A DNA stretch of 64,000 nt from a virus (IMGVR_UViG_3300043392_000054:118830-182829); one strand, 5' to 3'. Shown: positions 4,172 to 64,000, numbered from the stretch's first letter. The notes: generated from the letters alone by a model not told the origin. Translations and numbers: made by a program.

Positions 4172-5269
4172 ATGAAAATTAATCTACAAATACTAGAGCA
4201 ATATGTGTCTGAAGGATATGTGACTAAGCAAGTCCACCCAAAATATCCATTAGCCATATATAATTATACGCAATCAACTCAATATGAAAAAAATTGGGAT
4301 GAAATTACATTGTCTTGTAGAGGATTAATTATGGATACTGAAACTGGAGAAATTGTAGCTCGTTCTTTTCCAAAGTTTTTTAATTTAGAAGAGCTTGATG
4401 ATAAAACTAAAGTATCGCTATTGTCAAATCATAGAGTATCTGTTCAAGAAAAAATAGATGGGTCTTTAGGAATCATTTTTAATTATAAAGGTGAATGGAT
4501 TCTTTGTACTAAAGGTTCATTTACATCAGAACAATCAATTAGAGGAACACAAATTTTAACTAAAAAATATGACCTTAAAAAGTTTAACCCGGCTGTTTCG
4601 TATATCTGTGAAATCATTTATCCGGAAAATCGTATTGTTTGCGATTATCAGGACGCAGAAACACTTGTTTTTCTTACAGCATTTATTGACAATGTTGAAT
4701 TAGAAGAGGATATAGTTCAAGAAGTTTTTCTAGAATCAGGTATAGAATTAGAGGATACTATTTATGATACAGCGTACCTTGAAGAAATTAACTTTGATTT
4801 ATTATCAAGTCTTAAAGCTCAAAATAGTAAGGGTGAAGAGGGCTACGTATTAAGATTTTTACCTTCTAATTATAGAATCAAAATTAAGTTTAGCGATTAT
4901 ATTGCATTACATAGGATAATGACGCAGTGCTCTTCTTATGACATCTGGGAGAACTTGTCTAAATTCAATAAAGTACCAGATGAATTATTAGATAATGTAC
5001 CAGATGAGTTCTATGATTGGATTAGAGCTGAAGAAATTAGTATTCTATCAAATTTTGCACACATATATGCTTTACATGCTGCGTGCTTAACTAATTTAAA
5101 TCTGTCAAAAACTTTACCAAGAGCTGAAGTTGCTAAAGCAATTACATCCGTAAATCAACACAAAATTAGTCATAAGATTTTATTTGCAATGTATGATGGT
5201 AAATTAGTTCATGATATGATTTGGCCATTAGTAAAACCAGCGTATAGTAAACCTTTTAGTAAATTTTAA
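4172..5269 (+). CDS. T4 Rnl1-type RNA ligase
   Basis: YNYT, CRGLI, FPKFFN, nucleotidyltransferase motif I EKIDGS, EGYV, KIKF; ATG at 4172 lies 3 nt after a TATATTTG box, so possibly leaderless. Confidence 0.9.
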   Translation: MKINLQILEQYVSEGYVTKQVHPKYPLAIYNYTQSTQYEKNWDEITLSCRGLIMDTETGEIVARSFPKFFNLEELDDKTKVSLLSNHRVSVQEKIDGSLGIIFNYKGEWILCTKGSFTSEQSIRGTQILTKKYDLKKFNPAVSYICEIIYPENRIVCDYQDAETLVFLTAFIDNVELEEDIVQEVFLESGIELEDTIYDTAYLEEINFDLLSSLKAQNSKGEEGYVLRFLPSNYRIKIKFSDYIALHRIMTQCSSYDIWENLSKFNKVPDELLDNVPDEFYDWIRAEEISILSNFAHIYALHAACLTNLNLSKTLPRAEVAKAITSVNQHKISHKILFAMYDGKLVHDMIWPLVKPAYSKPFSKF

Positions 5270-28863: not shown

Positions 28864-28879
28864 CTAAACAAATAACATT

Positions 28880-29068: not shown

Positions 29069-29093
29069 GTTTGAATCCTGTTTTGACTACGGT

Positions 29094-29227: not shown

Positions 29228-29231
29228 ATTT

Positions 29232-29321: not shown

Positions 29322-29324
29322 CAA

Positions 29325-29415: not shown

Positions 29416-29434
29416 AAAGTATTGTAATAAACAT

Positions 29435-29521
29435 AGTCGGGTGACGGAGAGGAAACGCATGGTAAGACGCGTAATTACTTACACGGCTCACCACACACAG
29501 GTTCGAATCCTGTCCTGACTA
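29435..29521 (+). ncRNA. tRNA-scaffolded RNA, AGTCAGG family (TLE-9)
   Basis: AGTCGGG/CCTGACT-A, ACAGG-TTCGAAT-CCTGT, TGGT/ACCA and GTAAG/CTTAC cargo stems. Confidence 0.75.
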
Positions 29522-29523
29522 CA

Positions 29524-29709
29524 ATGTATCAAATGTGCAGTGAAAATTAGTGTAGGCATACATTGATGAGGTGGGTTCGATTCCCGTTTAATAATTCCTA
29601 ACTATGGAGGAAGCCAAGTAGCTGAGAACACATTATAGCCGGAATGGGTTGTGCACCTTGTCTAAGAGACCCTAATAGTTCCTAATAGGTCGGTATGGAA
29701 CTGATACAT
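29524..29709 (+). ncRNA. pseudoknotted RNA with internal T-loop hairpin
   Basis: ATGTATCA/TGATACAT closing stem; GGG-TTCGATT-CCC; crossing GACC/GGTC and AGTTCC/GGAACT. Confidence 0.55.
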
Positions 29710-29716
29710 AGTAATA

Positions 29717-29851
29717 TAGGTTGATTGGGGAATGGTTATGTCGATAGTTCGAGAGTGAATGCTGACTGACATAATCGGAGTTTAGAAGTATTCACCATAG
29801 TAAAGCCAATCATAAAAGTAGATGTCCACTGAACCATCTTCTACTTTCCTA
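29717..29851 (+). ncRNA. pseudoknotted RNA candidate
   Basis: TAGG/CCTA, GATTGG/CCAATC, TTATGTC/GACATAA crossed by GTGAATGCT/AGTATTCAC. Confidence 0.55.
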
Positions 29852-29856
29852 ATAAA

Positions 29857-29975
29857 TAAGAGGCGGTGAAAGCTGTAATGATGAGCTTACGAGGTTAAGG
29901 TTTGAAAAAGGGTTAATAGTACGACTTAAAGCCTGCACTCATCATCAGTAACCCTGAAAGACCCGTAGCCTCTTA
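29857..29975 (+). ncRNA. pseudoknotted RNA candidate
   Basis: TAAGAGGC/GCCTCTTA closing stem; TGATGAG/CTCATCA crossed by AGGGTTA/TAACCCT. Confidence 0.6.
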
Positions 29976-29978
29976 ATT

Positions 29979-30051
29979 GCTTCCATAGCTCAGTTGGTAG
30001 AGCAGCTGATTTGTAATCAGCAGGTCGTTGGTTCGAACCCGACTGGAAGCT
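29979..30051 (+). tRNA. tRNA-Thr(TGT)
   Basis: canonical. Confidence 0.96.
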
Positions 30052-30054
30052 CGC

Positions 30055-30115
30055 TGGATTATTGAATTGAATGATACGAGCCCCGAAAGTTCGAAATGAG
30101 TCATTCGATAATCCA
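30055..30115 (+). ncRNA. long hairpin RNA candidate
   Basis: TGGATTATTGAAT/ATTCGATAATCCA stem. Confidence 0.4.
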
Positions 30116-30119
30116 AATT

Positions 30120-30258
30120 GATTCTATAGTTGTTTAGGTCGCTCCGAAAACAACGAGTGGGTTAATGATGGTTTAATATTACTGTCCAATATTCTAGATA
30201 AAGTGATAAGTGATTAAACAAGTAATTAACAAGATGGGTTCGATTCCCATTAGAATCG
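30120..30258 (+). ncRNA. tRNA-scaffolded RNA, 139 nt (TLE-10)
   Basis: GATTCTA/TAGAATC-G, enlarged D arm GTTG/CAAC, long cargo stem GTTAAT/ATTAAC plus GTTTAAT/ATTAAAC, ATGGG-TTCGATT-CCCAT. Confidence 0.75.
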
Positions 30259-30263
30259 CATTT

Positions 30264-30337
30264 GGTTCGTTAGTAGAGTTGGTTACAATGTCGCCCTGTC
30301 ACGGCGAAGGTCACGGGTTCGAGTCCCGTACGAACCG
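30264..30337 (+). tRNA. tRNA-Asp(GTC)
   Basis: canonical, G73. Confidence 0.95.
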
Positions 30338-30338
30338 C

Positions 30339-30726
30339 ATTACATTATCGTTCTTTGACATATAGGAGAAAACAAATTATGGATATACTATCATTCGTTT
30401 TAGGGATTGCTGTTGTCGTGGTTATTGGATTATCAATAGTTGCGGTTATTGCATTTGTTAAGGCAAAGAAAATAGAAAAACAATTAGAAAACGTAGAATC
30501 TCATATTTTCAGAATATTGCAATCTGAAATATCAGATACACATCTAAAAATTGATGAAGTTGAAAAAGGAACTCATCAGTTAATTGATGAAGTTGAAAAA
30601 GGAACTCATCAAAGAATAGATGAATTAGAAAACAACGTCTTTTCTCAAATGGATTCGAGATTAGATAAACTAGAAAACAAATTAACAACTAAAAAATAAA
30701 AATTAGTTGAAGAACGATAATGTAAT
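30339..30726. repeat. 17-bp perfect inverted repeat bracketing an ORF
   Basis: ATTACATTATCGTTCTT (30339-55) / AAGAACGATAATGTAAT (30710-26); left arm overlaps boxA. Confidence 0.85.
30379..30699 (+). CDS. membrane-anchored coiled-coil protein
   Basis: N-terminal TM helix; 33-nt tandem repeat encoding IDEVEKGTHQ twice. Confidence 0.75.
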   Translation: MDILSFVLGIAVVVVIGLSIVAVIAFVKAKKIEKQLENVESHIFRILQSEISDTHLKIDEVEKGTHQLIDEVEKGTHQRIDELENNVFSQMDSRLDKLENKLTTKK

Positions 30727-30729
30727 TTT

Positions 30730-30801
30730 GGCCCTATCGACAAGCGGTTAAGTCACGTCTCTTTCTAAGATGAGTCACGGGTTCGAATCCCGTTGGGGCT
30801 A
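30730..30801 (+). tRNA. tRNA-Glu(TTC) with U37
   Basis: Glu-type acceptor and D arm; loop CTTTCTA. Confidence 0.8.
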
Positions 30802-30809
30802 CTTTAAAT

Positions 30810-30880
30810 TATTCCATGGTGTAACGGTAACACTACTGTTTTTGGTGCAGTCGTTGGAGGTTCGAATCCTTCTGGAATAA
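30810..30880 (+). tRNA. tRNA-Gln(TTG)
   Basis: loop TTTTGGT. Confidence 0.92.
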
Positions 30881-30989
30881 CAGCTTAAAACCGCATCGGG
30901 TATCGTGAACAAGGGAGGCCTGCAACTTGAAATAAAGACAAATCACGTTAAATCTCTCCATTGAAGGTGCTATCGGTGACCTTCTAAAT

Positions 30990-31063
30990 AGTGGTATAGC
31001 TCAGTTGGTTAGAGCATCGATCTGATACGTCGGGGGTCCCTGGTTCGAGTCCAGGTATCACTA
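30990..31063 (+). tRNA. tRNA-Ile(GAT), second copy
   Basis: loop CTGATAC. Confidence 0.9.
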
Positions 31064-31078
31064 CTAAATTTTATCAAT

Positions 31079-32167
31079 ATGAAAAGTAATGAGTTCTTAA
31101 AGGCATACTTAAATGCCTATTCACCGGTTGCGCAAGAGGCCGAAGGTCAACAAATATGGGTTGACTATGTAAAACAATTCACCAATGAAGTTAAGGTAGA
31201 TGCTTATGGTACTGCGGTTGCTAGAGTTCAAGGTTTTCAACCTATTTTACAACATAGAATGGGAGTGCCATACAAAGTTGTAATTGAAGCACACTGTGAT
31301 GAGATTGCCTGGATTGTAACTCAAATTGAAAAAGAAGGCTTTATTAGAGTTGCAAGACACGGTGGTTCTGATAATATGATTGCTGCTTCTAAAACAGTTT
31401 TAATTCACACTCATACAGGACAAAAAGTACCAGGTGTTTTCGGACACCCGGCAATTCATACTAGAAAAACGGTTACAGAAATGGGACCAGAATATCATGA
31501 ATTATGGATTGACTTAGGCGTCGAGTCTGATGAAAAGGTAAAAGAACTTGGAGTTGAGGTTGGTAACGTAGTTACGTTTGATGACCAATTCAGTGAGCTT
31601 GGAGACTACTATGTTGGTCGCTCATTAGATAATAAGATTGGTGGTTTTATCATCGCAGAGGCCTTGAGAAGAATCACAGAGCTAAAAGAAAAGCTACCTT
31701 ATGACCTATATGTAGTTAACTCGGTACAGGAAGAGGTTGGTTTATATGGTGCAAAGATGATTGCTAAGAGTTTAAAGGCTGATTTGGCTTTAGTGCATGA
31801 TGTTTGTCATAATACAAATACACCAAAGATGAATAAGGCAAAGGATTCTGATGTGAAAGGCGGTAAGGGACCAACATTAGAATTTACAGCCCAAAATCAT
31901 AGAATGATTATCTCTAAGTTAAGAGAAGTGGCCGAAAAGACTGAAATCGACCTACAACTACAAGTTGGTAGTTATGGTAATGACACAATGGCATTCTTTT
32001 TAGAGAACACACCAACTGCAATCGTTGCAACTCCATTAAAGTATATGCATTCAACTTGTGAAATGGCTCATAAAGAGGATGTAGAAAATTGTATTAAATT
32101 ATTTGTGAATTTCTTACTCAATATTAAGCCCGAGTGGATAGATACTGTAAAAGGTGAAACATTCTAA
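31079..32167 (+). CDS. M42-family (M20/M42) aminopeptidase
   Basis: EAHCDEI, GRSLDNKIGG, VQEEVGLYGA, DVCH, KYMHSTCE. Confidence 0.92.
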   Translation: MKSNEFLKAYLNAYSPVAQEAEGQQIWVDYVKQFTNEVKVDAYGTAVARVQGFQPILQHRMGVPYKVVIEAHCDEIAWIVTQIEKEGFIRVARHGGSDNMIAASKTVLIHTHTGQKVPGVFGHPAIHTRKTVTEMGPEYHELWIDLGVESDEKVKELGVEVGNVVTFDDQFSELGDYYVGRSLDNKIGGFIIAEALRRITELKEKLPYDLYVVNSVQEEVGLYGAKMIAKSLKADLALVHDVCHNTNTPKMNKAKDSDVKGGKGPTLEFTAQNHRMIISKLREVAEKTEIDLQLQVGSYGNDTMAFFLENTPTAIVATPLKYMHSTCEMAHKEDVENCIKLFVNFLLNIKPEWIDTVKGETF

Positions 32168-48545: not shown

Positions 48546-50187
48546 ATGCAAAAATTAAACGAATTCTTAGCTCAACATGGTCTTAAAGTTATTATTGTTT
48601 TATTAGCTTTAACTTATGCTAAATCTTGTAGTGTTGATTCTGAATTAACAAAAGTTAAAAAGCACTTAGCCGTAATTGATTCTTTACCGACTAGAAGTGA
48701 TTTAAAGGTCGAAGGTTTAAAGGCTGAAAAAAGAATGATTCAAGCTACTGACAGAAAAATGTTAGATGTACAACGTCAAACTCAAATTGACGAAGAATTA
48801 AAAAAATTGGACAAATAAAATGCCAATTGAAAGGAAATCACATGGTTTTGGGGACACTATAGCTAAATTTACAGCTGCAACCAATATAGATAAAGTGGTA
48901 AAGGTTGTAGCTAATTTAGCTGGTTATAATGACTGCGGGTGTAATGAAAGAAGAGAAGCTCTAAATAAAGCATTTCCTTATAAAAATAATCAAATTAATA
49001 ATGAACAAAACAAATCTAGTCAATAATTTTGTTATTGGCACTTTTGTAATGCTATATTTAATCGTGTCTATTATTTCAACAGTACACGTAATTAACTTTT
49101 TTAGCCTATCTAATCCATATTGGTTAGCAGTTTCTCTTGCAATCGCGTTTGAGGTTGGTGCAGCCGCATCTTTAGCCTCTTTAATTGCATTAGATAAAAT
49201 GAACAAAGGTCTTGTATGGGCTCTTTTTATTACAATTACCTTAATGCAAATGCAAGGTAATATGTATTACGCATTTACTAATCTACAAGATTATAAATCT
49301 TGGTCAGAATTATTTAATCTAATAGAAGAGGACCAATTATATCAAAGAAGAGTGCTTTCATTTGTTTCGGGTGCTATTTTACCTCTTGTTGCTTTAGGTT
49401 TTATTAAATCCTTAGTGGATTATATCAAGCCTGAGAAAGTTGAAGAGTCTGAAAAAAAAACTAAAGTCGGTAGTCTAGAAGGACCTATCGGAACTAATGG
49501 ACCTGACGATTCTACGTTGCAACCAGTTTTAGCAGTAGACCCAACACCTGGTCAAGCTTCAATTGAAGAACCTGTGGATTCCACAATAGGGTTTGATATT
49601 GAAACAAAGGACGATAAAAGGGATATTATTAAAACAGAAGATGACCTAAATCATTTTTTAGATAATTCTGGCCAAGGATTAGTAAATTCAAAACCTAGAC
49701 CTAGAGTTATAGGAGATGATAATAGACCAACTGGATTTCAACACCCTGACGTAATTAGCTAATGCTAAAAAGACTACATTTTAATTTAGTAAAACCTTAT
49801 ATCAATAAATCATTAGATATTGATTCAATGCAACAGGTTCTGGATAAACCAGACTCTGTTGCTTATTGTTTGTATTGTATCAAAAATGATGTCAAAGAGA
49901 TAATGAAGTTTGCTGAATTAAATGACCCAGAATGGGACTTGATGGCTCATGTTAGAGTTAGATACGCTTTAGTAGGTGCAGCAAAAAGACAAGCTTGGGA
50001 AGTAAAACCCTTTTCAAAATTAATAAAGGTTAAACCTGAATACAATTTTATTTGCATACTTGATTCCTTAAAAGAGGGCAAAATGATGTATTATAAGAGA
50101 TTCAAGACTACTAACCCAGATATTATCTATAAATTAGTTCAAGAGGCTTATCAAGATTTACAATTAATTACTGGCTACTTTGAATAA
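48546..50187 (+). CDS. four hypothetical proteins (48546-48818, 48820-49026, 49001-49762 multi-TM, 49762-50187)
   Basis: abutting ORFs; TM helices in first and third. Confidence 0.65.
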
Positions 50188-50238: not shown

Positions 50239-52155
50239 ATGATTGGAATTTGGATTGACACACCAGCCTTAGGCGATACTATTGCTGCAATTCCTACTTG
50301 TAAAAAAATTTCAGAAGCATACGGCCAATCGGTCCATATTATAGCAAATCATGCCTATTTATTTGAAGGTATTGAATACGTTGCAAGCACTTCTAAACCA
50401 GACCATACTAATTTCAATAACTTTGATAAAGTTCATAGACTTTTTGGACCTTTAGTCGGTAAAGGATATGAATTACAAGGTGGAGAAAGGGTCGAGTGGA
50501 GATATTCAAATATGGACATTCGTCAATTTCATGCAGTTTCACAAGGATTTACACTTTTAGAATCTGAAATGGAAACCTCTTTACATATTGAAAGAGAGCG
50601 AGAATTGATATTCGAGAATCAAATTCTTAAGGACTATGTAATTATACATCCAACTACAACTTGGGCCACTAGAACATGGGATACTGAAAAATGGCAAGAG
50701 CTATGTGATAAATTAGCTTTTGCTAATATTCCAGTTGTAGCAGTTGGTAGAAGCGGTAAAGAACAAGGATTCTATAATGTAGATAAACCTGTGATGGATA
50801 TTAATATTCGTTTAGGTGTTAATCTATTAGATGACCCAGATAATGATGTTGCAGAATTAAGATGGATGATGAATCATCGAGCTCGCTGCGTAGTGACAAT
50901 GGATTCAGGTATTTTACACGTTGCAGGAACCACTGATGTTAATATTATTCAATTAGGTAGTTCAATTGACTATAAATTACGAGCACCCTATAGAAATGGT
51001 TCACAAGATTATAAATTTCAGTATATTGGTGGTTCTTGTAATTTAGCTTGTTCAAGTAATATGAAATACAATGTCCAGATTCATGGAAATATACATGGTG
51101 TACCTCCACAAGTTTATTGTTTAGAAAATAAGCCAACATTTGAATGTCATCCTGACGTAAATAAGGTGTTCGAGGGCGTAAAGTCATTATATAAGCATAA
51201 TGAAATCAGGTATGATATAGACCCTAAAAGAATCTGTGTAACTACAATCTATAATGATAATTATCAAAACATGGCAAATATTACAGCTTTTGATAATTTT
51301 GAAAAGTATTGTAAAATCCATGGCTACTCTTTAGAAGTTATTAAAGTAGAGGATGATAAAATAGAAAGAACACCACACTGGGAAAAAGTTAAGGTTGTAA
51401 AATCTTTATTACAAAGTGGTAAATACGATTGGGTTTTCTTTATAGACTTGGATTGTCTATTTATGAATACCACTATCAAATTGGAATCATTTATTAGTGA
51501 TGAACATTTTATGGTCATTACGGGCCATGATGACATTCCAGATACTCCTATTTTAAATCAACATGGCACAAAGTCTATTATGACTGCGCAGTTCTTAATT
51601 AAAAACTGTGAAGAATCTATTAAATTTCTTGATGATGTTTGGGCTGCTGAAGAAACTCAAGATAAAATCAAAGTGTTTGATTATGAAATGCGTCAATTTA
51701 GATATTCAGCAGATAAATCTGAATTTAAGCAAGGCATTAAAATCATAGACGGTAAAAACTTTAATAGATTTTGGTACAGCAATAGTATTTTTATGATTCA
51801 TCATTTTCCAAAGACAAACGATGATGTATGGCAATACGGAGATTTTATAGTTCATGTCCCTGCTGGAGCAGCTGAACAAAGATTAGCACATTTAAGTGAC
51901 CTAAACTATTTTTCAGGTGGAGCAATGATTGGGCATAGAATTGAAGAGGATGTAGTTTTATTTGAACCTCTATCTGATATTCAAAACTTTAAGATGGTTA
52001 TTATAGATGCAGAAGGTTCAAGAACTAATTACCATTTTGATGAATTAAAGGTTCGAACTGTTGGTAAACTTTGGATGAATGCAGATATAAAGAAACCAAT
52101 TAGAGTTGAAGGTTATAATAAAGAACAAGAATTAATATCAATACAAGTTTTATAA
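50239..52155 (+). CDS. two-domain glycosyltransferase (GT9-like plus GT34-like)
   Basis: ALGDTIA, VTMDSGILHVAG; second domain WEKV..WVFFIDLDCLFMN. Confidence 0.8.
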   Translation: MIGIWIDTPALGDTIAAIPTCKKISEAYGQSVHIIANHAYLFEGIEYVASTSKPDHTNFNNFDKVHRLFGPLVGKGYELQGGERVEWRYSNMDIRQFHAVSQGFTLLESEMETSLHIERERELIFENQILKDYVIIHPTTTWATRTWDTEKWQELCDKLAFANIPVVAVGRSGKEQGFYNVDKPVMDINIRLGVNLLDDPDNDVAELRWMMNHRARCVVTMDSGILHVAGTTDVNIIQLGSSIDYKLRAPYRNGSQDYKFQYIGGSCNLACSSNMKYNVQIHGNIHGVPPQVYCLENKPTFECHPDVNKVFEGVKSLYKHNEIRYDIDPKRICVTTIYNDNYQNMANITAFDNFEKYCKIHGYSLEVIKVEDDKIERTPHWEKVKVVKSLLQSGKYDWVFFIDLDCLFMNTTIKLESFISDEHFMVITGHDDIPDTPILNQHGTKSIMTAQFLIKNCEESIKFLDDVWAAEETQDKIKVFDYEMRQFRYSADKSEFKQGIKIIDGKNFNRFWYSNSIFMIHHFPKTNDDVWQYGDFIVHVPAGAAEQRLAHLSDLNYFSGGAMIGHRIEEDVVLFEPLSDIQNFKMVIIDAEGSRTNYHFDELKVRTVGKLWMNADIKKPIRVEGYNKEQELISIQVL

Positions 52156-55100
52156 TGAGAGCATTTATTTCACATACAACTGAAAATTACGAACATGTTG
52201 TACTTAATTTAGCTAAAAGTATTAATAGGTACTCAGTACATCCATTAATAGTTTATACAATTGACTATGATGCTAGTGATGCATTAAAAGATTTGGCCAT
52301 TTGTAAAAGATTAGACCTTAATTTACCCATTTCAAATACTGATGATTTTGTAGAGTTTGAAGGAAACCAATATGTAAATAGAGGTACATATAGAACTTAT
52401 ATGACCCTTTCTGCAAAAATCGATTGCATGTTAGATGCAACTGAAATGGGTATTAAAGAATGGGTTTATCTGGATGCAGATTGCATTGCTAATACAAACG
52501 TAGATGACATGTTTGAATATGCAAAGCAAGTTAAAGACTACCCTTTAGCCTCTCTGGGACCTCAGGAATACGCCCTATTAATAGAAGGTGATGAATTAAT
52601 AGGAAATCCTTTCTGGAAAGAAGATGGTTCTACAGATAATACAAACTGTCTGGAATGGAAGCTAATGGATTTCTTTGGAATGAAACCTGAAGACCGGTCT
52701 ACTAATTATAGAACTACAAATATTTTAGTTGGAACTAATAAAGTAGGAGCTTTCTTAAAATTATGGAAAGAGGCTAAGAATGTATTTCCAAAGTTATTTG
52801 ATACCTATAAAGCTATGCCATATCATGAAGAAACATTATACAATGTTTTAGTTTGGCAAAGAGATGACCAGTATTTACCAATGGTTTATATCAATATCCA
52901 AGGTGTAGAAACTGTTGAAGATTTTTTAGCTAATGAAGTAGAAGAGGATACATTAAAAGGTGCATTTTATAAGTTTCCGGCTGATAAAAATCAGATTAAA
53001 GTTTTTCATGGAGAAAAAAGAGCTGAAGAAATAGAAAAGGTATTTAGATTATTAGGTGAAAAGAAAGAAGCATTAAAGATTTTATTTTTAGCACCACATC
53101 TTTCAACTGGTGGTATGCCAGCATTTCTATTAAGAAGAATTCAAATGCTAAAGAAGTGGACTAAGCATGAAATCTTTGTAGCAGAATGGACTCTTTATTC
53201 AGGTGCTTATGTTGTTCAGCGCAATCAAATTCTTGATATAATTCCAGAAGACCACTTTATTTCATTAGGTTTTTTAGGAGAGGATGAAGAAACTCATTTA
53301 AGAGGTAGAAGCAGAATCGTTAATATCTGTTATCAATGGGGTATTGATGTAATTCATATTGATGAAATTCCAGAGGGTTTTGATGGATTCTCGGTCTTTC
53401 CAATAGAATTACAAAGAGAATTATACAATGAAAGACATCCATGGAAAATAGTTGAAACTTGTCATAATGTTTGGTTTAAACCAAATGAAATGAAACGAGC
53501 TGAACCAGATGCATACGCTACTATTGTTCATGAACATATTAATAATACCTTTAAGGGTCGTGGTGTAAAAACTGAATTGATTCAATTTCCAATTGATAGA
53601 CCAAATGATAATGTCTTACCAAATAGAGAAGAAATCCTATCTGAAATGGGATTTAGAACTAGTGGAGAATACCATATTGTAAATATTGGTCTATGGACTC
53701 CTGGTAAAAATCAAACTTATGCTTTACAAATAGCTAAGCATCTATATGATTATTATGGTCAAACTTACCAGTTTCATTTTATTGGTAACCAAGCCCCTAA
53801 TTTTGAACAGTATTGGAGACCTTTAATGGAAGATGTTCCACCAAATTGTCATATTCATGGTGAAAGAGATGATAGCTGGAGATTTTTATTAATGGCAGAC
53901 CTAATGTTATTTACATCGACATGGGAGTGTAACCCTATTGTTTTAGCCGAAGCACATGGTTATGGATGCAAAACAATGGCCTTTAATTTACCACAATATG
54001 GAGACCGTTGGACTGATAAAATCACAACACTATCAGGTACTATTCACAAAGATGCAAATGAATTAGTAAATCAATGTGCAATTAAAAAGGAGACCAAGTT
54101 ACCAAATGGTATCGATGGACATAGATTTGCAATGCAACATGATAAATTATACACAGAATTAGCAAAAACATCACCATATAGAAGACCAACTACATTAATG
54201 TTAAATGACAGATATAGTATAGAATTTAATAATGTTCTTAAATTCGTGAATAAACATGAAACACCATGTAATGTTGAATTTTGGGACCAAGATTCAGGTA
54301 AATTAATTCACTTTCATAATGGTTTAGGCTCTAATTATTGGTGCTCACCATCTCCACAATATTTTGTAAATTGGAAAGTTGTAATGCATTGGGAAGACAG
54401 GTCTATTGAATGGGTAATGGACCTAAAAGATAAGACAGTTTATGTTGAAATAGGCAGTTCAAGTCTTGGAGATAGTTTAGCCTTTGTAGAAGTTGTTAGA
54501 GCTTGGGTTAAACAAAATGGGATTAAGAAGTGCTATTTAATGACCTATAAAAACTTCTTATTTGATTGGGATGATTATGCTAAAGACAATGTTTTTCCAT
54601 CTCATCCAGGTACAGCTTACCCAGAATTTGATTATAGATTTTATTTAGGTGTGCACATGGGAACTGAATCAAATGGAGAACCTGCATGGTACCCAAATAA
54701 AAATAAAAGAGATTGGAGAGCTATTTATTTAGGAGATGTAGCAGCTGATGGTTTAGGTTATAAAGGTAATGCTGAATTAAGACCAAGATTAGCTTTTAAA
54801 GAGGCAGAAAGACCAATTGAAAACAAATATATTGTAATTGCTACTCAATCCACAGCTCAGTCAAAGTATTGGAATAATCCAACAGGTTGGCAAGAATTAG
54901 TAGATTGGCATTTACAAAACGGTTATGAAGTATATTTAGCTTCCAAGGAACATGATGGTTATATGGGCAACTGGTATCCTAAAGGAGTTAAGCAATTACC
55001 AGAACCTTTAGAAGAGGTTGCAAATTGGATGCGACACGCTGAATATTTTATTGGCATCTCAAGTGGTTTAAGTTGGTTAGCTTGGGCTTTAGATATACCA

Positions 55101-55328
55101 GTAGTTATGATTTCAGGCTTTACACCAGAAGTATGCGAGTTTACTGATAAGACCCTAAGAATTATAGATAAGTCAGTATGTAATTCATGTTGGGAATGGG
55201 GTCATTTTGATAAAGGTGACTGGCATTGGTGTCCAGCTCATAAAGGAACGGAAAGAGTTTATGAATGTAGTAAAGTAATTACTGCACAAAGAGTAATAGA
55301 ACAAATTAAAAATTGGAATAAAAAATAA
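52155..55328 (+). CDS. multidomain glycosyltransferase with Aah/TibC-like heptosyltransferase C-terminus
   Basis: WVYLDAD; APHLSTGGMP GT4-like domain; SSSLGDSLA, STAQSKYWN, GISSGLSWLAW, VVMISGFT, C..CW..C..C cluster. Confidence 0.8.
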   Translation: MRAFISHTTENYEHVVLNLAKSINRYSVHPLIVYTIDYDASDALKDLAICKRLDLNLPISNTDDFVEFEGNQYVNRGTYRTYMTLSAKIDCMLDATEMGIKEWVYLDADCIANTNVDDMFEYAKQVKDYPLASLGPQEYALLIEGDELIGNPFWKEDGSTDNTNCLEWKLMDFFGMKPEDRSTNYRTTNILVGTNKVGAFLKLWKEAKNVFPKLFDTYKAMPYHEETLYNVLVWQRDDQYLPMVYINIQGVETVEDFLANEVEEDTLKGAFYKFPADKNQIKVFHGEKRAEEIEKVFRLLGEKKEALKILFLAPHLSTGGMPAFLLRRIQMLKKWTKHEIFVAEWTLYSGAYVVQRNQILDIIPEDHFISLGFLGEDEETHLRGRSRIVNICYQWGIDVIHIDEIPEGFDGFSVFPIELQRELYNERHPWKIVETCHNVWFKPNEMKRAEPDAYATIVHEHINNTFKGRGVKTELIQFPIDRPNDNVLPNREEILSEMGFRTSGEYHIVNIGLWTPGKNQTYALQIAKHLYDYYGQTYQFHFIGNQAPNFEQYWRPLMEDVPPNCHIHGERDDSWRFLLMADLMLFTSTWECNPIVLAEAHGYGCKTMAFNLPQYGDRWTDKITTLSGTIHKDANELVNQCAIKKETKLPNGIDGHRFAMQHDKLYTELAKTSPYRRPTTLMLNDRYSIEFNNVLKFVNKHETPCNVEFWDQDSGKLIHFHNGLGSNYWCSPSPQYFVNWKVVMHWEDRSIEWVMDLKDKTVYVEIGSSSLGDSLAFVEVVRAWVKQNGIKKCYLMTYKNFLFDWDDYAKDNVFPSHPGTAYPEFDYRFYLGVHMGTESNGEPAWYPNKNKRDWRAIYLGDVAADGLGYKGNAELRPRLAFKEAERPIENKYIVIATQSTAQSKYWNNPTGWQELVDWHLQNGYEVYLASKEHDGYMGNWYPKGVKQLPEPLEEVANWMRHAEYFIGISSGLSWLAWALDIPVVMISGFTPEVCEFTDKTLRIIDKSVCNSCWEWGHFDKGDWHWCPAHKGTERVYECSKVITAQRVIEQIKNWNKK

Positions 55329-55737: not shown

Positions 55738-56055
55738 ATGAAAAGCAAACTTGAAAAATTTGCAGATTTGTTTAAGAGTATTACTTTTGATATTTGTATT
55801 AAGGAATCTTCTATCATCGATGAAGAATTAGAAGAAACTGGTAAAAAACATCAACAGAGTCCTGAAACAAATGAAAAGGCTAAAGTTGAATTAAGCAAAG
55901 CTCTTCAGCGTGCTAAAAGTGATTTAGCATCTGCTAAAAAATTATTTAAGCAAGGTAAATTAAGTAACGATGACTTACTTGAATATGAATGGAGAGTTTA
56001 CGAACTAAAAGAACAATTAGACCAAATAGATAACGAAGATGAAGAAATACGTTAA
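55738..56055 (+). CDS. hypothetical protein
   Basis: 105-aa ORF. Confidence 0.65.
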   Translation: MKSKLEKFADLFKSITFDICIKESSIIDEELEETGKKHQQSPETNEKAKVELSKALQRAKSDLASAKKLFKQGKLSNDDLLEYEWRVYELKEQLDQIDNEDEEIR

Positions 56056-56755
56056 ATTATACGAAGAATTTATAGAAGAAGGCATTAATGACCCTAATAT
56101 CTTAAAAGCTTTCTTTATGGCCGGTGGCCCAGGTTCAGGTAAATCATACGTAGCTGCAGAGTTATTTAATATTCCTAAAGAAACTACTCAATCCGTTTCT
56201 TATAGAACAGGTTTAAAAACTGTCAATTCAGACCCAGCTTTTGAATTAGAATTAAAGAAAATGGGAGTTGACCCTAAAACATTAGGAGAAATGGACCCAG
56301 AAGAATTTGATAAACTAACTAAAGGTGAAGATTCTCCAAGAGCTAAGGCTAAAAAAATTACAATGGCTAAACAAGAATTATACATTAATAATTTATTAGG
56401 TATGATTATTGATGGTACAGGTGATGACTTTAGAAAAATTGCAGATAAGAAAAAATCTTTAGAAGCTCATGGTTATGATTGCTTTATGGTTTTTGTCAAT
56501 ACTTCTTTAGAAGTTGCATTAGCAAGAAATGCTAAAAGAAGCAGGTCTTTACCAGAAGAATTAGTTAAAGAGAGCTGGCATGCTGTTCAAAATAATTTAG
56601 GTAAATTTCAGAACTTATTTGGTTCTACAAATATGATTATCGTCGATAATACAGTTGATATGGCAGTTGATTTTGAAATGATTGAAAAATCTATTCAAAA
56701 AATGCTAAATAAGCCTATTCAAAATCCAATTGGAAAAAAAATCTTAAAAAAATAG
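56039..56755 (+). CDS. P-loop kinase (zeta-toxin/AAA_33-like) with CTS-like tag
   Basis: MKKYVKLYEEFIEE; AGGPGSGKS, NSD..FE, IIDGTG, ALARN..R.R. Confidence 0.75.
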   Translation: MKKYVKLYEEFIEEGINDPNILKAFFMAGGPGSGKSYVAAELFNIPKETTQSVSYRTGLKTVNSDPAFELELKKMGVDPKTLGEMDPEEFDKLTKGEDSPRAKAKKITMAKQELYINNLLGMIIDGTGDDFRKIADKKKSLEAHGYDCFMVFVNTSLEVALARNAKRSRSLPEELVKESWHAVQNNLGKFQNLFGSTNMIIVDNTVDMAVDFEMIEKSIQKMLNKPIQNPIGKKILKK

Positions 56756-56816
56756 TCAATATATTTTTTTATATCAAAGTTTTTAGTTATATTTGTATAT
56801 AATTAAAGAATACAAC

Positions 56817-57275
56817 ATGCAAAAACAAATATTATACATCGATTTAGACGGAGTTGTAGTTGACTTAGAAGGAAATGCAATCAAAAGACACGGAGCAGAC
56901 GCAGTAAATCATTTGGGCAAATTAACATCAATAGATAAACATCTTTTTGATACACCAGAACCAGTTTCAGGCGCTATAGAAGCAGTTACTTTATTAATGA
57001 AAGAATATGACGTATTCTTTTTAAGCACTGCACCATGGAGTAATGTTAATGCTTGGTCTGCTAAAAGAGTTTGGGTTCAAAAACATTTTGGTAAATTAGG
57101 TCATAAAAGACTTATTCTTTCTCACAGAAAAGACCTATTAATGGGAGATTATCTTATTGATGACCGACCAAATAATGGAGCTGCAGAATTTAAAGGACAA
57201 TGGCTTCAATTTGGTAAAGAAGGCTTTGAGAACTGGGATAAGGTTTTAAATTACCTAATTAAAAGTGATATATAA
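56817..57275 (+). CDS. 5'(3')-deoxyribonucleotidase (NT5C, HAD)
   Basis: YIDLDGVVVD, LSTAPW, K..WV, GDYLIDDR. Confidence 0.9.
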   Translation: MQKQILYIDLDGVVVDLEGNAIKRHGADAVNHLGKLTSIDKHLFDTPEPVSGAIEAVTLLMKEYDVFFLSTAPWSNVNAWSAKRVWVQKHFGKLGHKRLILSHRKDLLMGDYLIDDRPNNGAAEFKGQWLQFGKEGFENWDKVLNYLIKSDI

Positions 57276-57297
57276 TCCATAAAATATTATTTGGAAA

Positions 57298-58981
57298 ATG
57301 AAAAAGGTTAAATTATTTGAGCAATACGTAGCTGAAAAGAAATCAGACTATCAAGTTTATCATAATACTTATTCTGCTGCAATTGATACAGCATTAGAAT
57401 ATGCAGAAGATAATGGCTATGAATACGATAAAGAGGAAACCTTTACTAAAATAGGAATGGGTGATAAAAAACCTAAAGATGGAGTTACTAATAAGTTTAC
57501 TATCACTCTGTATAAAGATGGTAAAGAACAAAAGAAAGCTCTTCAAATCCAGGTTTATGGAATGGGTAATAAATATGAATTAAACGCATATATCGCATAA
57601 TGAAAAAGGTAAAACTATTTGAAGACTTTATTAATGAAGCTTATAAGCAAGTTCCCTATAATGTAAAGATTGCAGGAGTTTATAAAGTCGATATAGATGA
57701 TGCAGAATGCACTGTTAAAGTGGCTGGTTTTGAAAGACAAGGTGATGACACAGATGCTCTTTATTTAATGGACACTGACCCTTATAAATCTCTATTAGGT
57801 AGTCTTATTGTCAAGAATAAAGATATGTTTAGCTTACCAAAGGGTAAAACAGTTAAGGCTCATTCTACGACTAATAATAATGTAACAATAACACGTTTAA
57901 GAGACTTATAAAAAATAAAATAATTATGAAACACGTTAAATTATTTGAACAGTTTATTGGTGAAATGAGTCATAAAGATGTTCACTTTAAAGATATTATG
58001 CAAATGTATCTTAAAGGAGGTTCATTTACAAAAAAGAAAGTAGCTTCAGTTGTTTGCAAAAATCCTAATGCTTCTCAAAAAGAAATTGAAGATGCTTTAG
58101 AAGATTCAGATTATAATGAAATCATTGAATTTGAAGATGAATTAGGAATTCATGAAGCAATTGTAAATGAAGAATCTGGCAAGATGAAACAAATTAGAAC
58201 TGGAAAGCCAGAAAACATATATTATGTATTTTATAAAGGCAAATTTGATGTGGACTACAGTTCAATGGGTCCTCGTCCCGTGCAACAATATTACAAAAAT
58301 GAATTTAAGGTAAGAAAACCAAAGGGTTCTGAATTTGATTTTAATCCTGATTTTAAAGTTGTTTCTAAAACTCAATATGAAAAATATCCAGAGGATTATA
58401 AAGAATTAAAACCATTTGTTGATAAATTTTGGGATGAATTAGGTGTTAAAGAATCAACTGTAAATGAAAGTTGGGAAGCTAAAGATGGTAAAGTGTTATC
58501 TAATGGCAAACTTATAGGTTATTATAGTTTTGATAGTGATTCAGATTCTTTTTGGGTAGATGACTTTAAAGGTAAAGGTCAAAAATCATTTGAAGAAAAA
58601 TCAGAAGTGATTGCATATTTTAAAAAGCATGAAAAAGAGGCACTTAAAGCATTACAAAACTTTAAAGAAGTAGATGAATCTATTGTAAATGAAGAATCTT
58701 CTAAAAAAGATTTAGAGCTTCAAAGAATAAAGTTATTAAATCAAGCATTTAAAGCAATGCCTAATTCACCTAAGCAACTTAAAATCAAAGAAGAGATACA
58801 AAAAATCGAATCTCAAATTAAAGAATTAAGTGAAGGTGTTGGTACTGAAATTGGAGATTCTTCAACATTACAACCAAATCCGGGTGAATCTGAAGAATCT
58901 TTTAAAATCAGAACTTTTTCAGCTAACGTTGACGATTATGAAAAGTTCGTAACTGGTAAAAAAATAGTTAAAACTTTTTAA
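57298..58981 (+). CDS. three CTS-tagged proteins (57298-57600, 57600-57911, 57926-58981)
   Basis: MKKVKLFEQYVAE, MKKVKLFEDFINE, MKHVKLFEQFIGE; GATATATA upstream. Confidence 0.8.
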
Positions 58982-59039
58982 AGGATTTGAATATATAGAT
59001 TGTAGTTTTACTCTATAACCTAATAATATTAAATCTTTT

Positions 59040-59210
59040 ATGGAAAGTTTCATCGCAGAAGTCGGTCCAGCTTCTGTGTGCGAAACTAAAGAGAATCTTA
59101 CTCATCTAAAAGAAGTAATAGTTGAACAAATTACCAAAGGTTTAACTATACTAAATGATGATGACGAAGCGTCAAATTGGTTTTTCTACGGAGTTGGTGG
59201 TCCGGCCTAA
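59040..59210 (+). CDS. 56-aa ORF followed by terminator (59219-59246)
   Basis: ends WFFYGVGGPA; hairpin AAAGGAATCC-AATT-GGGTTCCTTT plus T tract. Confidence 0.5.
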   Translation: MESFIAEVGPASVCETKENLTHLKEVIVEQITKGLTILNDDDEASNWFFYGVGGPA

Positions 59211-59331
59211 AAGAAATTAAAGGAATCCAATTGGGTTCCTTTTTTTATGAAAAAAATTAAAAATAAATGCTTAAATATTTTTTACTGTCATTTATTTTGT
59301 GTAGATTTACAGTATAATAAAAAGAGATAAT

Positions 59332-60171
59332 ATGAAAACAGTTAAATTATTTGAACAATTTGTAAATGAATCTAGAGGTTCTGAATTCTCACATGCAGTT
59401 TTAACTGCTCTAGAGCCAACTATCTTAGAAATGGTTGAAAATATCAAAGCTCAAATCATTGAACAATATGCTAAAAAGAATGAAACGTACACTGTTAGCG
59501 CTTTTGAAGAAAGAATGATTTACTTAGGTTTAATTGTTGATATGTTAAAATCATTTGAGAAATACACAGAACCAACTGATAAATTAATTAAAATCCAAGC
59601 AAATATTGCTCGTAAAGGTGTTGAAATCTATGCAGTTGTTGAGAGAGACGGTGTACAATATGACTATTTCACTGAAGCTATTGGTGCTGGAGGTTATAAT
59701 ATTCAATCTTATCACTATCGTTATTTAACTAAAACTAAATTACCTAACGGTAAAATTAAAGGTACTTTATCTAATGAATATGCTGAGCAATTAAAGAAGT
59801 TAACTAAAGTTGAAAAGATGAATGCTGAAATTAAATCTTATCAAGTTAGAATTGAAAGAAATAATGAAATTATTCAAGCTTCTCTAGGTTTTACAGACGA
59901 AGAAATTTTAGCTAAAGTTAATGCTGGTGATAATATAATGGGAAAACCTTATCAATGGCCAACATGGGCAGAAATCGTTAAAAATGGTGCTGCTAAGAAT
60001 TATAATAATGATGAAGCTGCTTATAATAAACAAAAGTCAGATGCTGAAGCAGATAGCATAGAATTTTGGAAAAGGAGAAACATTAAATGGAATCAAGAAA
60101 ATAACAAAGCTCTTGAAAAGAATATTTCTAAACTTGAAGCTAAATTAGCACAAATCACATCTCAATCTTAA
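59332..60171 (+). CDS. CTS-tagged protein
   Basis: MKTVKLFEQFVNE. Confidence 0.8.
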   Translation: MKTVKLFEQFVNESRGSEFSHAVLTALEPTILEMVENIKAQIIEQYAKKNETYTVSAFEERMIYLGLIVDMLKSFEKYTEPTDKLIKIQANIARKGVEIYAVVERDGVQYDYFTEAIGAGGYNIQSYHYRYLTKTKLPNGKIKGTLSNEYAEQLKKLTKVEKMNAEIKSYQVRIERNNEIIQASLGFTDEEILAKVNAGDNIMGKPYQWPTWAEIVKNGAAKNYNNDEAAYNKQKSDAEADSIEFWKRRNIKWNQENNKALEKNISKLEAKLAQITSQS

Positions 60172-60388
60172 TCAATGCAACTATATTTAGAAGCAACAGT
60201 TCGATTAATAGCTGAAAAGCTAGGCTCTCCTGAAAAGGTGAAAGCTTGGCTTGAATCGGGCGAAATCAAACAAACCAAATCTGGTGTAATTTATTTTCAA
60301 ATAAAAGAAAAATAATTTTTATTTGTCGATTATTTTTAGTAGATTTGCATAAGTTAATTATTAATCAAGTCACTTTAATTAAAAGAAC

Positions 60389-60893
60389 ATGAGGACAATC
60401 AAACAATTTAAAGTTCCTAAAGGAATTAAATCAAAACAACCAGAACATCTTAAAGAATTTAATCGTTGGGCTAAAAAAAATAGAATCTCCACAAAATGGG
60501 TGGCTGACACTGAAGAAAAACGTGATTTTATTGTAAGATTACAAGAGGCAAAATTCGCAGAAGCAATGTTAAAAGAAAGAACAGATGAAGAAAAACATAA
60601 AGAGGTTATCTAATCCAGATTCCTTAAGTGGAACAAGTCTTAAAGGTACTATTAATGGTATCGCATTTATTGAATTATTTGCAGTTCTTGGCGCTCCAGA
60701 TGCCGAGGAAACAGATGGTTCTCAATTTGAATGGCATATAGATTTTAAAGGTCAACCAATTTGCTTATATGACTGGCATAAAGGTGACCGAATTCAAGTC
60801 TTAGACCAAAATAGAACTTGGAATATAGGTTCTAATGCAAATGTTGCAGATTTTATTGAGCATTTAGATGCTTTAGTAAAACAAAATCGTTAA
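60389..60893 (+). CDS. two hypothetical proteins (60389-60613, 60585-60893)
   Basis: after class I promoter. Confidence 0.65.
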
Positions 60894-60909
60894 CTAAACC
60901 CCAAACAGT

Positions 60910-61479
60910 ATGTTTTATAAGTATGATAAAAAGAATTTTGTATTTAAAACAATTAACACTAAATTCTATTTCAATGCAATCTTTGGAGTACTATTTACAT
61001 TTGTACTCTCATCTTTTGTAAGTTATAAATACGGTATTTATCAAAGTATTAATGGTCTAACAGATAATGAGCGTGCAGTCATTATTAAAAGACAAGACCA
61101 ATTTGAACAGGAGAAATTAGTTCAAATGATGAAAGAGTTAAACGTTAAGTTTCCTTGGATTCCATTAGCACAATCGATGGTTGAAACTGGCCATTGGAAA
61201 TCAAATATTTTTATTGAAAACAATAATTTATTTGGTATGAAAGAGGCTAAACAACGCATCTCTACAGCAGGAGGAACACAAAATGGGCATGCATATTATG
61301 AAACTTGGAGAGAATCTGTTTATGATTATGCATTCTATCAATCTCGATATCTAGCCTCTATTCGCTCAGAACAAGAATACTTTCAATATCTTTCGGCAAG
61401 TTATGCAGAGGACCCAAATTATATTCGAGCTATCAAAGCTGCTATATCTGATAATAATTTAAAACAATTATTTAAGTAG
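60910..61479 (+). CDS. membrane-anchored glucosaminidase (GH73-like)
   Basis: AQSMVETG, NNLFGMK, YAEDPNY. Confidence 0.85.
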   Translation: MFYKYDKKNFVFKTINTKFYFNAIFGVLFTFVLSSFVSYKYGIYQSINGLTDNERAVIIKRQDQFEQEKLVQMMKELNVKFPWIPLAQSMVETGHWKSNIFIENNNLFGMKEAKQRISTAGGTQNGHAYYETWRESVYDYAFYQSRYLASIRSEQEYFQYLSASYAEDPNYIRAIKAAISDNNLKQLFK

Positions 61480-61510
61480 ATATATAAAGTTAGAATATAA
61501 TAATATTATT

Positions 61511-64000
61511 ATGAAGAAAATAAAACTATTTGAAGAGTTTATAGGCGAGTATATTGTAAATGAAGGCGCAGATTATGAATATCTAGTTGATTTGTTATTA
61601 AACGCAAAACCAGCATACGATGTTTATTATAATAATAGTCAAAATGTTGTCAACGTTGGAGGAACTGGTTATAGTGAAGGAGAGCTTGTAAAACAACTAA
61701 AAGGTGAGCCAGGATTTGCATGGAAGATTAGAAATAACTTCTACTATGCGCAACAAGATCCAAAAGAAACTAAAAAACAAATAGAAAAATTATCAAAAGG
61801 TAAAATACAAGTTGATAATTCTACATCTATTGTAAAATATAAAGTCAAATAATGATGAAAAAAGTAAAGTTATTTGAAGAGTTTTTAGCAGAATCAATTG
61901 AGTCTAAAATTAGGTCTCAGTTGATTCAATTTTTACATGAAGGTGTAAAAATGATTCCAGTTGCTTCAATTAATGAAGGTTTAGTTGACAAAGCTCAATA
62001 TGAACTGGATTTATTGATGAAGAATGCTGAAGGAACCCCAGTTGTTAAAGAATTTGTGCCTGAAATCATGGCTCTAGTAAAGAAATTTGCAGATTCTGGT
62101 CAAAGCGGTGGATCAGCACCTTTTGTATCTCAAATTATTGTTCAAGTATTACAGAAATTATTGAAGCATGAACCTCTTGGAGAGGGTATTATGGGAACTG
62201 ATGATGAATGGAGCGATATGTCAGATATGGAAAATGTTGCTGAAGGAACTGGAAGTTTTCAAAATATGAGGCTTAGCTCTGTATTTAAAGAGGGCAAGAA
62301 CGGTAAACCTTATTATTTAGATGCAATTGTATTTACACCCGAAGGAAAAGATTATAGCTTTACAAGCAGTGGTGTTGGTATGACTGAAGGCAGCGAAGAA
62401 ACAATAGGCTCTTTTCAATACATTAAATCATTTCCATTTATACCAAAGACTTTTACAATTGATGTATGTGAAAAAGAGTACCGTAAATTAGAAGATGGTT
62501 CTATGGTTGAAGAAGAAGGTGGAGGCTGGTGGGAAAGCTGGTTAGCAGACCCTAAACAATTAGACCAAGTTTGGGAATATTACGATAAAAAAGAACCAAA
62601 AAAGAAATAGCAAATATATTTTTTATTTCGTATAAATTTATTATATTTGTAAAACAAAAACAAAATTATGAAACACGTTAAATTATTCGAACAATTTATC
62701 AATGAAGGCAACTCATCTTTTACTAAAGATGAAGTTAAAACTATTAAATCATTGCTTACAAAAGAAACTGGATTTAAAAATTCAGATGAGTATGCAGGAT
62801 TACCATCCTTATTAATTGGAGATTATCAAGATAGCGAAGTATTGGTATTATTTAAGAAAAGTATTGGAGATGAACCGGCTTCTATAGATAATATTGAAGT
62901 TGATTTTATTAAGTGTGTAAGTGCGATTAGAGGCCTTTCAATTTATAATCCTGCAGAATTCAAGCTTATGAAACAATGGGCTAAAAAATGGGACTTTAAA
63001 ATAACTGGCCAAACGGATAATTTATATACTAACAAACAAATTTTACCTAAAGATGTTCAAAAAATGGCTGAAGAATTTACAGATATTCTTGTACAAGCTT
63101 ATGGTAAAGACCGCATGAAAACATATTAATATGAAACACATTAAATTGTTTGAAGATTTTATTAGCGAAGGTGTTAAATATGAATCTGGCAGAGGTATTG
63201 TTTCAGAATGGTCTGGTACTGCAACCTCTGAAAAAGAATTCATTGAGATGATTAAAAGGATGCCAGAAACATTAAAATCTATTGTTGTAACTAATAGCAC
63301 ATCTAGTTTTAATCCTAGTAGAGAAAAGTTTGAAGGTCCTATTGATTCTGCAAAGAAGAACAAAATCATTAAGATAGTTAAAGATATGACTAAAGCTTTT
63401 AAAAAGCAAGGTGATGAAATTACTGCTTATGAGTTAATGTCATTCTATGGTGTTAGTAATGCTGAAAAACATAATACAGACCCGGCATATATTCAATATA
63501 GAACAGAAAAAATAAGTGCATTTAATCATGATATGAGTGCAGGTCGTTACGGTTCATTAGATTAAAAAAAATTACATAGAAAAATGAAATACACAAAAAG
63601 ATTTGAACAATTTGTAGATGAGTCTATTGTTAATGAGGCTTCAGAAATATCTCTTAATGATTTAGATTCAAACAAACAAAAATTAGTCAATGAACTTGTA
63701 AAATTTTTTGGCGGAAAAGTACTTAATATCTGGGGAGGAATTCATGGTAATATTGTCGATATTCAAATGTCTGAGCCTGTATGGAGAATGGATACACAAG
63801 ATTTAAAAGATTTGATTTCATTAAAAATTAGATGGATTGAATTTGACAAAAAAACAGTTTCAATAGGATTTTAATATGAAACACATAAAATTATTCGAAG
63901 ATTTTATAAACGAAGAAAAAGTTTATATTGATTTTTTAAATAAGAAAAAAGGATTCTCACAAGATAGAATTAAATTTAATTCTTATGAGGAAGCCGTAAA
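61511..64000 (+). CDS. six CTS-tagged proteins (61511-61852, 61852-62610, 62668-63129, 63131-63565, 63584-63874, 63876 to window end)
   Basis: MKKIKLFEEFIGE, MKKVKLFEEFLAE, MKHVKLFEQFINE, MKHIKLFEDFISE, MKYTKRFEQFVDE, MKHIKLFEDFINE. Confidence 0.8.

Follow-up and report, generated by a model that had tools for sequence, protein, structure and literature searches.

The stretch of viral DNA analysed here, referred to below as the window, is the final 64 kb (64,000 nucleotides) of the 182,829-bp IMG/VR contig IMGVR_UViG_3300043392_000054 (contig positions 118830-182829), which was estimated to be 64% complete by CheckV. The contig has a G+C content of ~30% and carries nearly every gene on the plus strand. 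Our subject is an array of genes between position 56039 and the end of the window, whose products all begin with the same short peptide (hereafter the tag). Proteins and genes are named by W and their start position in the window, or by g and their start position on the contig. The array had been pointed out by an earlier reading made without database searches (the sequence-only reading), which took the shared peptide for a capsid-targeting tag on injected effectors.

All 11 tagged N-termini listed in that reading were found where it had placed them, and the consensus was confirmed as MK-[KH]-[VI]-KLFE-[EQD]-F-[IVL]-x-E, a peptide of 13 residues at the very N-terminus (Table 1). The tag of W56039 has 14 residues, with one residue extra and Y replacing F (MKKYVKLYEEF-IEE), while the most divergent tag is that of W63584 (MKYTKRFEQF-VDE). 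The start at 61852/61855 reads MMK or MK. A six-frame scan of the whole contig found the motif 12 times, always at the start of an open reading frame (ORF), and not once on the minus strand or inside an ORF. The twelfth tag lies outside the window, at contig position 49618 (g49618). Likewise, a degenerate DNA pattern gave 11 matches in forward and none in reverse orientation, and its reversed-pattern control gave none. The array is interrupted by the contig end at 64000; hence, 11 is a minimum, and the array may continue beyond it. Weaker variants, not counted among the 12, begin a 123-amino acid (aa) head-module protein, a 628-aa protein at contig position 36528 and an Rnl1-type RNA ligase (W4172).

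Table 1. Tagged genes and associated features, in window coordinates.
Feature	Position	Strand	Remarks
Possible weak tag variant, ending Y-V-S-E, on Rnl1-type RNA ligase	4172..5269	+	excluded from the 12
Occurrences of GATATATA in the window	7100, 19688, 20876, 23595, 32868, 42414, 43080, 57267, 61479	+	16 more on the contig
Tagged gene 1, P-loop kinase (Zeta_toxin/AAA_33), 238 aa, 14-aa tag with Y for F	56039..56755	+	tagged homologues in relatives
Late-promoter-like box GATATATA	57267..57274	+	31 nt before W57298 start
Tagged gene 2, 100 aa, no recognisable function	57298..57600	+	conserved and tagged in relatives
Tagged gene 3, 103 aa, no recognisable function	57600..57911	+	
Tagged gene 4, 351 aa, three internal VNE sites	57926..58981	+	
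Intrinsic-terminator-like hairpin and T-run	59219..59242	+	end of 57298-59210 operon
Tagged gene 5, 279 aa, confident fold without PDB match	59332..60171	+	AlphaFold2, Foldseek
Late-promoter-like box GATATATA	61479..61486	+	32 nt before W61511 start
Tagged gene 6, 113 aa, second site YIVNE directly behind tag	61511..61852	+	
Tagged gene 7, Tad3 homologue, 41-residue leader	61852..62610	+	Pfam PF25185, PDB 9b7d
Tagged gene 8, 153 aa, no recognisable function, host-type promoter region upstream	62668..63129	+	
Tagged gene 9, 144 aa, no recognisable function	63131..63565	+	
Tagged gene 10, 96 aa, most diverged tag, second site SIVNE directly behind tag	63584..63874	+	
Tagged gene 11, broken off by contig end	63876..64000	+	

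Behind the tag, the bodies are unrelated, as the sequence-only reading had maintained. In an all-versus-all BLASTP comparison no pair was better than E = 0.005, a marginal value that belonged to g49618 and W63131. The P-loop kinase that it had recognised is indeed one: W56039 matched both Zeta_toxin (32.4 bits, cut-off 22.3) and AAA_33 (32.2 bits, cut-off 27), and contains the P-loop (Walker A) motif GPGSGKS. Searches of PHROGs and Pfam gave no match for 8 of 10 bodies. A sequence search of the PDB gave no significant match for W59332, W57926, W62668, W63131 and W56039, and the ESM Atlas gave no usable match for W59332 and W62668. A structural resemblance of W62668 to the cluster of GmrSD N-domains (template modelling score 0.49) was too weak and was dropped. 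The genes without a tag in this region include an NT5C 5'-nucleotidase (window 56793-57275) and, amid the array, an endolysin with a glucosaminidase domain and an N-terminal hydrophobic segment (window 60910-61479).

The tandem arrangement of the tagged genes and the small size of many of their products might suggest that the 11 genes descend from one ancestor and have diverged so fast that only the N-terminus can still be recognised. However, the bodies include the unrelated folds of Tad3 and the P-loop kinase, as well as a predicted fold without a match in the PDB. Moreover, three of the bodies have untagged homologues in other phages, and our comparison of the bodies found no similarity among them. 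Common descent of the whole set is therefore highly improbable in our view.

The tag is widespread among uncultured viruses. Our scan of IMG/VR covered at least 119 loci with at least 211 tagged ORFs, whose bodies fell into ~104 clusters, 64 of them singletons. Among 96 cluster representatives, ~12 had a Pfam match; the families were Tad3, Acb1/2H phosphoesterase, kinase, CHAP, PAP2, cytidylyltransferase, an ATP-grasp enzyme, LRR and two DUFs. In relatives, the number of strict tags ranges from 4 to 16.

This collection indicates at which level the tag is conserved. The tags use every synonymous codon of Leu, Phe, Glu, Lys, Ile, Val, Gln and Asn, and in the 211 IMG/VR tags the proportions of synonymous codons are similar to those in the bodies. 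The pattern with which the tags were collected was codon-degenerate at these positions, so that this result is not biased by detection. The DNA ahead of the tagged genes varies as well: in some cases the start codon overlaps the preceding stop codon, in others a promoter stands before the gene. With such freedom both in synonymous codons and in the upstream DNA, the sequence data indicate that selection acts on the tag peptide. A conserved element at the translation start of many genes could also be an mRNA element, such as a translational operator or enhancer, or the target of a RegA-like repressor. Yet, ribosome-binding regions are as little conserved as the rest of the upstream sequence, and conservation tracks amino-acid class across all synonymous codons. 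We consider a role of this kind to be hardly credible.

The bodies turn over rapidly. A complete 256-kb relative (G009) carries 14 tags in a syntenic cluster, which has only 3-4 bodies in common with the cluster in the window. Judged by these comparisons, the tagged cluster is a hypervariable locus like the internal protein (IP) loci of T-even phages. An alternative explanation might be that the conserved stretch is mainly a recombination handle at the DNA level, used for swapping cargo cassettes as has been proposed for the T-even internal-protein loci, and that the peptide has no role in sorting. High cargo turnover in syntenic clusters would fit this explanation, as would the head-to-tail succession of tags every 0.3-1 kb. 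A DNA handle is at odds, however, with synonymous positions that vary freely while the amino acids are fixed. Furthermore, the tag variants of other lineages keep the aromatic/aliphatic/Glu pattern despite different DNA. As the sole role of the tag, recombination is thus quite improbable, but it could be a secondary benefit alongside targeting to the capsid.

The phage that carries the tags is, by its head genes, an uncultured T4-like jumbo phage and a distant relative of T4. Its major capsid protein is of the Gp23 type (PF07068, E = 1.4e-42, 142 bits, above cut-off), and its prohead protease is an S77 protease of the gp21 type (PF03420, E = 1.4e-12, 44.1 bits, above cut-off). The protease domain is 26% identical to T4 gp21 (E = 1e-11) and retains the conserved His and Ser, in the motifs LGEL-[DN]-HP and [IV]-SSR, which we take to be the catalytic pair of gp21. 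The head module reads, in order, portal, 123-aa acidic protein, 616-aa protease-scaffold fusion and capsid protein; the acidic protein, which has a related tag, is thus encoded between portal and protease. In the fusion (contig 64213-66063; locus L009 1432-3282) the S77 protease is joined to a long coiled-coil scaffold part with repeated Y-[ST]-E-H-[IV]-A-E-like heptad blocks. Tagged relatives have the same protease-scaffold fusion (600-750 aa), which is also annotated in the Tenacibaculum phage PTm1. By capsid protein, the nearest records are uncultured huge phages, the Lak phages of Prevotella and Tenacibaculum jumbo phages. Because of these capsid relatives (Lak, Tenacibaculum) and of the TAnnTTTG-type -7 boxes that precede several genes, the host is likely a bacterium of the Bacteroidota.

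Head type and tag occur together in other genomes as well. Gp23 and/or the S77-scaffold fusion was present on 18 of the 21 tagged contigs longer than 90 kb, and both tagged contigs that are at least 90% complete carry Gp23 as well as S77. In one relative (G015), canonically tagged genes lie directly upstream of the protease-scaffold gene.

In phage T4, the internal proteins IPII and IPIII carry the capsid targeting sequence (CTS) MKTYQ-EFIAE, which is cut off by the gp21 prohead protease, and IPI carries a longer, related CTS (PMC9026906; PMC3012670, reviewing Mullaney and Black 1996). Residues 4 (Tyr) and 7 (Phe) of the CTS matter mainly for targeting, and residues 8 (Ile) and 10 (Glu) for processing (PMC9026906). 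We found the CTS exactly twice in the T4 record, in ipII and ipIII. When the T4 CTS and the tags of the window are aligned on their terminal Glu (position 0), Tyr-4 of the CTS falls at position -6, where the tags have F/Y, Phe-7 at -3 (F/Y), Ile-8 at -2 (I/V/L) and Glu-10 at position 0 (Glu). All four determinants are kept in 12 of the 12 tags of the contig. Among the IMG/VR tags the aromatic positions are F/Y in 211/211 and 210/211, which is partly circular, since the retrieval pattern required F at both; the terminal Glu is present in 211/211, which is again partly circular, since both the fetching pattern and the ORF expression required it.

The tag thus resembles the T4 CTS in being N-terminal, in beginning with MK, in having aromatic residues at the targeting positions and an aliphatic residue and Glu at the processing positions, and in being attached to otherwise unrelated proteins. 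The two phages also share a Gp23-type capsid protein and an S77 protease, and in both the cargo is hypervariable among relatives and includes at least one immunity inhibitor (IPI* against GmrSD in T4, the Tad3 homologue here). There are differences too. The tag has 13 residues instead of 10, with an extra [VI]-K-L turn. At least 12 genes are tagged on this 64%-complete contig, with up to 16 strict matches in relatives, compared to three IPs and Alt in T4. In addition, the protease is fused to a scaffold protein here, leaders removed in two steps or sites repeated internally are predicted for some cargo, a host within the Bacteroidota is probable, and the system is known from genes alone.

The tag behaves as a module that can be separated from its cargo. 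The untagged homologue of the kinase in the pelagiphage HTVC008M begins at the residue following the tag Glu. Similarly, a search of BFVD found a homologue of W59332 in the Tenacibaculum phage pT24 that is untagged and begins at the body. The AlphaFold2 model of W59332 has a predicted local distance difference test score (pLDDT) of 88 overall, which falls below 50 for residues 1-15, indicating that the tag is disordered; a Foldseek search with this confident model found no match in the PDB. The W59332 family comprises 174 proteins, and among the best 120, which were examined, 59 were tagged and 14 had a weaker variant as judged by profile score. Because three bodies (Tad3, kinase and W59332) have untagged homologues and the tag is modelled as disordered, sequences and model together indicate that the tag is a bolt-on module.

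Some cargo contains further sites that resemble the end of the tag. Behind the tag, the density of the motif [ILVFYT]-[ILV]-N-E in tagged proteins (4 in 1,763 residues) is about six times that in untagged proteins (19 in 53,417 residues). Three nearly identical sites of the form E-[AS]-[IT]-VNE are found in W57926, where they span residues 79-82, 178-181 and 253-256, and the sequences ahead of the first two resemble each other. In W61511 and W63584, a second site follows right behind the tag. This pattern suggests two-step leaders and, in the case of W57926, polyprotein-like cargo. The last ~38 residues of W57926 (window 58850-58981) resemble the C-termini of tagged proteins in two relatives (L156 and L118, E about 5e-5); possibly, some cargo shares a C-terminal module.

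The most informative cargo is W61855. It matches the Pfam family Tad3 (PF25185) with E = 9e-22 and 77.5 bits (cut-off 27), and its residues 47-245 align with residues 7-190 of PDB chain 9b7d_B (194 aa) with E = 4e-35. Tad3 is an inhibitor of type I Thoeris, a homodimer that binds the TIR protein ThsB (PMC13728456). By sequence W61855 is a Tad3 homologue, and it is predicted to block Thoeris. Its leader of 41 residues consists of the tag, a helix and then a disordered A-S-I-N-E-G linker; in the AlphaFold2 model the helix spans residues 7-29, and pLDDT is below 50 at residues 37-42, which form this linker. The second [IV]-N-E site of the protein lies exactly at the junction of leader and body, within the stretch modelled as disordered.

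We surveyed 80 loci of the Tad3 family in IMG/VR. About 70 of these encode proteins of 180-205 aa that start within a few residues of where the similarity to W61855 sets in (mostly its residues 40-50), and none of these ~70 leaderless loci has a tagged ORF within 10 kb. The other 10 carry ~41 extra residues, and 7 of them have 4-14 more tagged ORFs nearby. A search for related loci that started from one Tad3 homologue with a variant tag found no match. Hence, in contrast to the validated Tad3 and the ~70 homologues, which are leaderless, W61855 and its clade have a 41-residue extension. This leader implies that the inhibitor would be delivered by the particle instead of being synthesised after infection. 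Some other Tad3-like homologues are fusions of 410-420 aa, in which a DUF5824 domain and a variant tag stand upstream of the Tad3 body (P0034-P0075); in these proteins one leader may load two domains.

The box GATATATA occurs 25 times on the plus strand of the contig and not at all on the minus strand. A start codon follows within 60 nt in 18 of the 25 cases, and the distance is mostly 25-45 nt. Downstream of the box are, among others, the protease-scaffold gene, the gene for the tail sheath and a fibre-like gene. Most likely, therefore, it serves this lineage as late promoter and is the probable counterpart of T4's TATAAATA. Two tagged operons appear to be driven by it. Behind the box at 57267, the genes W57298, W57600 and W57926 form an operon with a small ORF, and this operon ends at a terminator (59219-59242); the box at 61479 stands before W61511, which is directly followed by the Tad3-like gene with overlapping stop and start codons. 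The box also precedes g49618 and g36528. Because the Thoeris blocker would be made late, its synthesis makes most sense if the protein is stored for the next infection.

Other upstream regions look different. A promoter-like region of ~40 nt that ends in a Bacteroidota-type TAnnTTTG box is shared by W62668 (window 62620-62667), the RNA ligase at 4172 (window 4120-4171) and g49618 (contig 49560-49617). It hints at early transcription by the host polymerase, and at a Bacteroidota host.

We propose that the 13-residue peptide is this lineage's version of the T4 CTS, and assign this reading a probability of roughly 0.7 on account of the T4-type head, the CTS determinants, the peptide-level selection, the modularity, the head-module context, the late promoters, the association with one clade and the turnover of cargo. 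In the proposed mechanism, the tagged proteins, at least those in the two operons with a GATATATA box, would be made late in infection, and the tag would attach them to the prohead's scaffolding core. The scaffold-fused S77 protease would clip the tag after the terminal Glu of [IVL]-x-E, and in some cargo a further [IV]-N-E site, either a second or an internal one, would be cut as well. After maturation, the proteins would stay in the head alongside the phage DNA until both enter the next host cell, where at least one of them, the Tad3 homologue, would shut off Thoeris immunity ahead of all phage gene expression.

Several points weigh against this interpretation. Docking, cleavage, residence in the head and injection are steps that we infer. 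With its 13 residues, the tag exceeds the T4 CTS by three, and a similarity over 10-13 residues cannot prove homology. In the alignment with T4 gp23, where homology starts at about residue 70, no unambiguous [LI]-x-E maturation site was found in the capsid protein; as this site could not be assigned, protease specificity in the lineage lacks an independent readout. Some tagged genes have promoters of the host type (W62668, g49618) or no late box of their own, and hence not all of them are demonstrably late. Degenerate tag patterns found no match in HTVC008M, the Flavobacterium phage immuto and the Tenacibaculum phages PTm1 and pT24, the latter two being the nearest cultured relatives by capsid protein; the only record with a tag variant among those scanned beside the cultured phages was LR756500, an uncultured record of 462 kb. 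As no cultured phage was found to have the tag, no virion proteome bears on packaging. Finally, a known anti-defence family is represented by one of the 11 bodies, and 9 of the 11 have no recognisable function. The earlier claim of a capsid-targeting tag on injected effectors is therefore upheld in part: head type, CTS residues, modularity, late promoters and the Tad3 homologue agree with it, but the anti-defence role has a demonstrated family behind it for Tad3 only, and is presumed for the other cargo.

Alternatively, the tag might be a docking peptide for another partner, such as a chaperone, a modifying enzyme, the host polymerase, a membrane or a replication compartment, in which case the proteins would act unpackaged in the cell that produces them. 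A short amphipathic peptide on many unrelated proteins would suit any common receptor, and the early-looking, host-type promoters before some tagged genes fit this alternative. It does not account, however, for the match to all four mapped positions of the T4 CTS, the protease motif included, nor for the tie between the tag and contigs with T4-type head and S77 genes (18 of the 21 large contigs) and the tagged genes inside the head module. The [IV]-N-E site at the junction in the Tad3 homologue is, moreover, where a removable propeptide predicts it. Docking to another partner is hence unlikely, although it is the strongest of the alternatives that we considered.

If the tag indeed is a capsid targeting sequence, the system also invites comparison with the ejection (E) proteins of SPN3US and phiKZ. 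These jumbo phages likewise pack many proteins into the head, and their prohead protease cuts after Glu (PMC5694885, PMC7411985), as predicted for the phage studied here. They differ in their cleavage motif and do not use a single short N-terminal tag; moreover, their cargo was identified by proteomics, whereas ours was read from sequence. Our literature search found no paper on such a tag outside the T-even phages. We regard the tag system as a new form of the internal-protein system known from T4, and not as a system of a separate kind.

Two other features of the window deserve mention. Just upstream of the tagged array lie two multi-domain glycosyltransferases of 638 and 1057 aa (GT9, GT1/4 and GT34-like; window 50239-55328), which may have a role in the glycosylation of DNA or of a surface. 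Further upstream, there are 27 tRNA genes, with a dense array at 23800-31100, in which some tRNA-like matches were not called by ARAGORN (e.g., 28398-28467, 28749-28863 and 29435-29521).

In a wider sense, we see an even chance that a clade of uncultured T4-like jumbo phages with genomes of about 250 kb, probably infecting Bacteroidota, marks its injected proteome with one tag that can be read from sequence. If so, sequence alone would suffice to list the proteins that many uncultured jumbo phages inject. About 85% of the ~104 unrelated cargo families in the IMG/VR sample have no known domain, and the tag would offer a practical way to search for new proteins that counter defences or take over the host. 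Inhibitors of the first line of bacterial defence would be looked for above all among proteins delivered with the phage DNA, and the Tad3 homologue offers a built-in positive control. A late-made Thoeris blocker packaged in the particle would represent a delivery route that has not been described for Tad proteins, and two-step leaders and polyprotein-like cargo would widen the known range of prohead-protease substrates. A short and portable loading tag from a phage lineage outside those of E. coli could also serve the engineering of phage particles that carry proteins.

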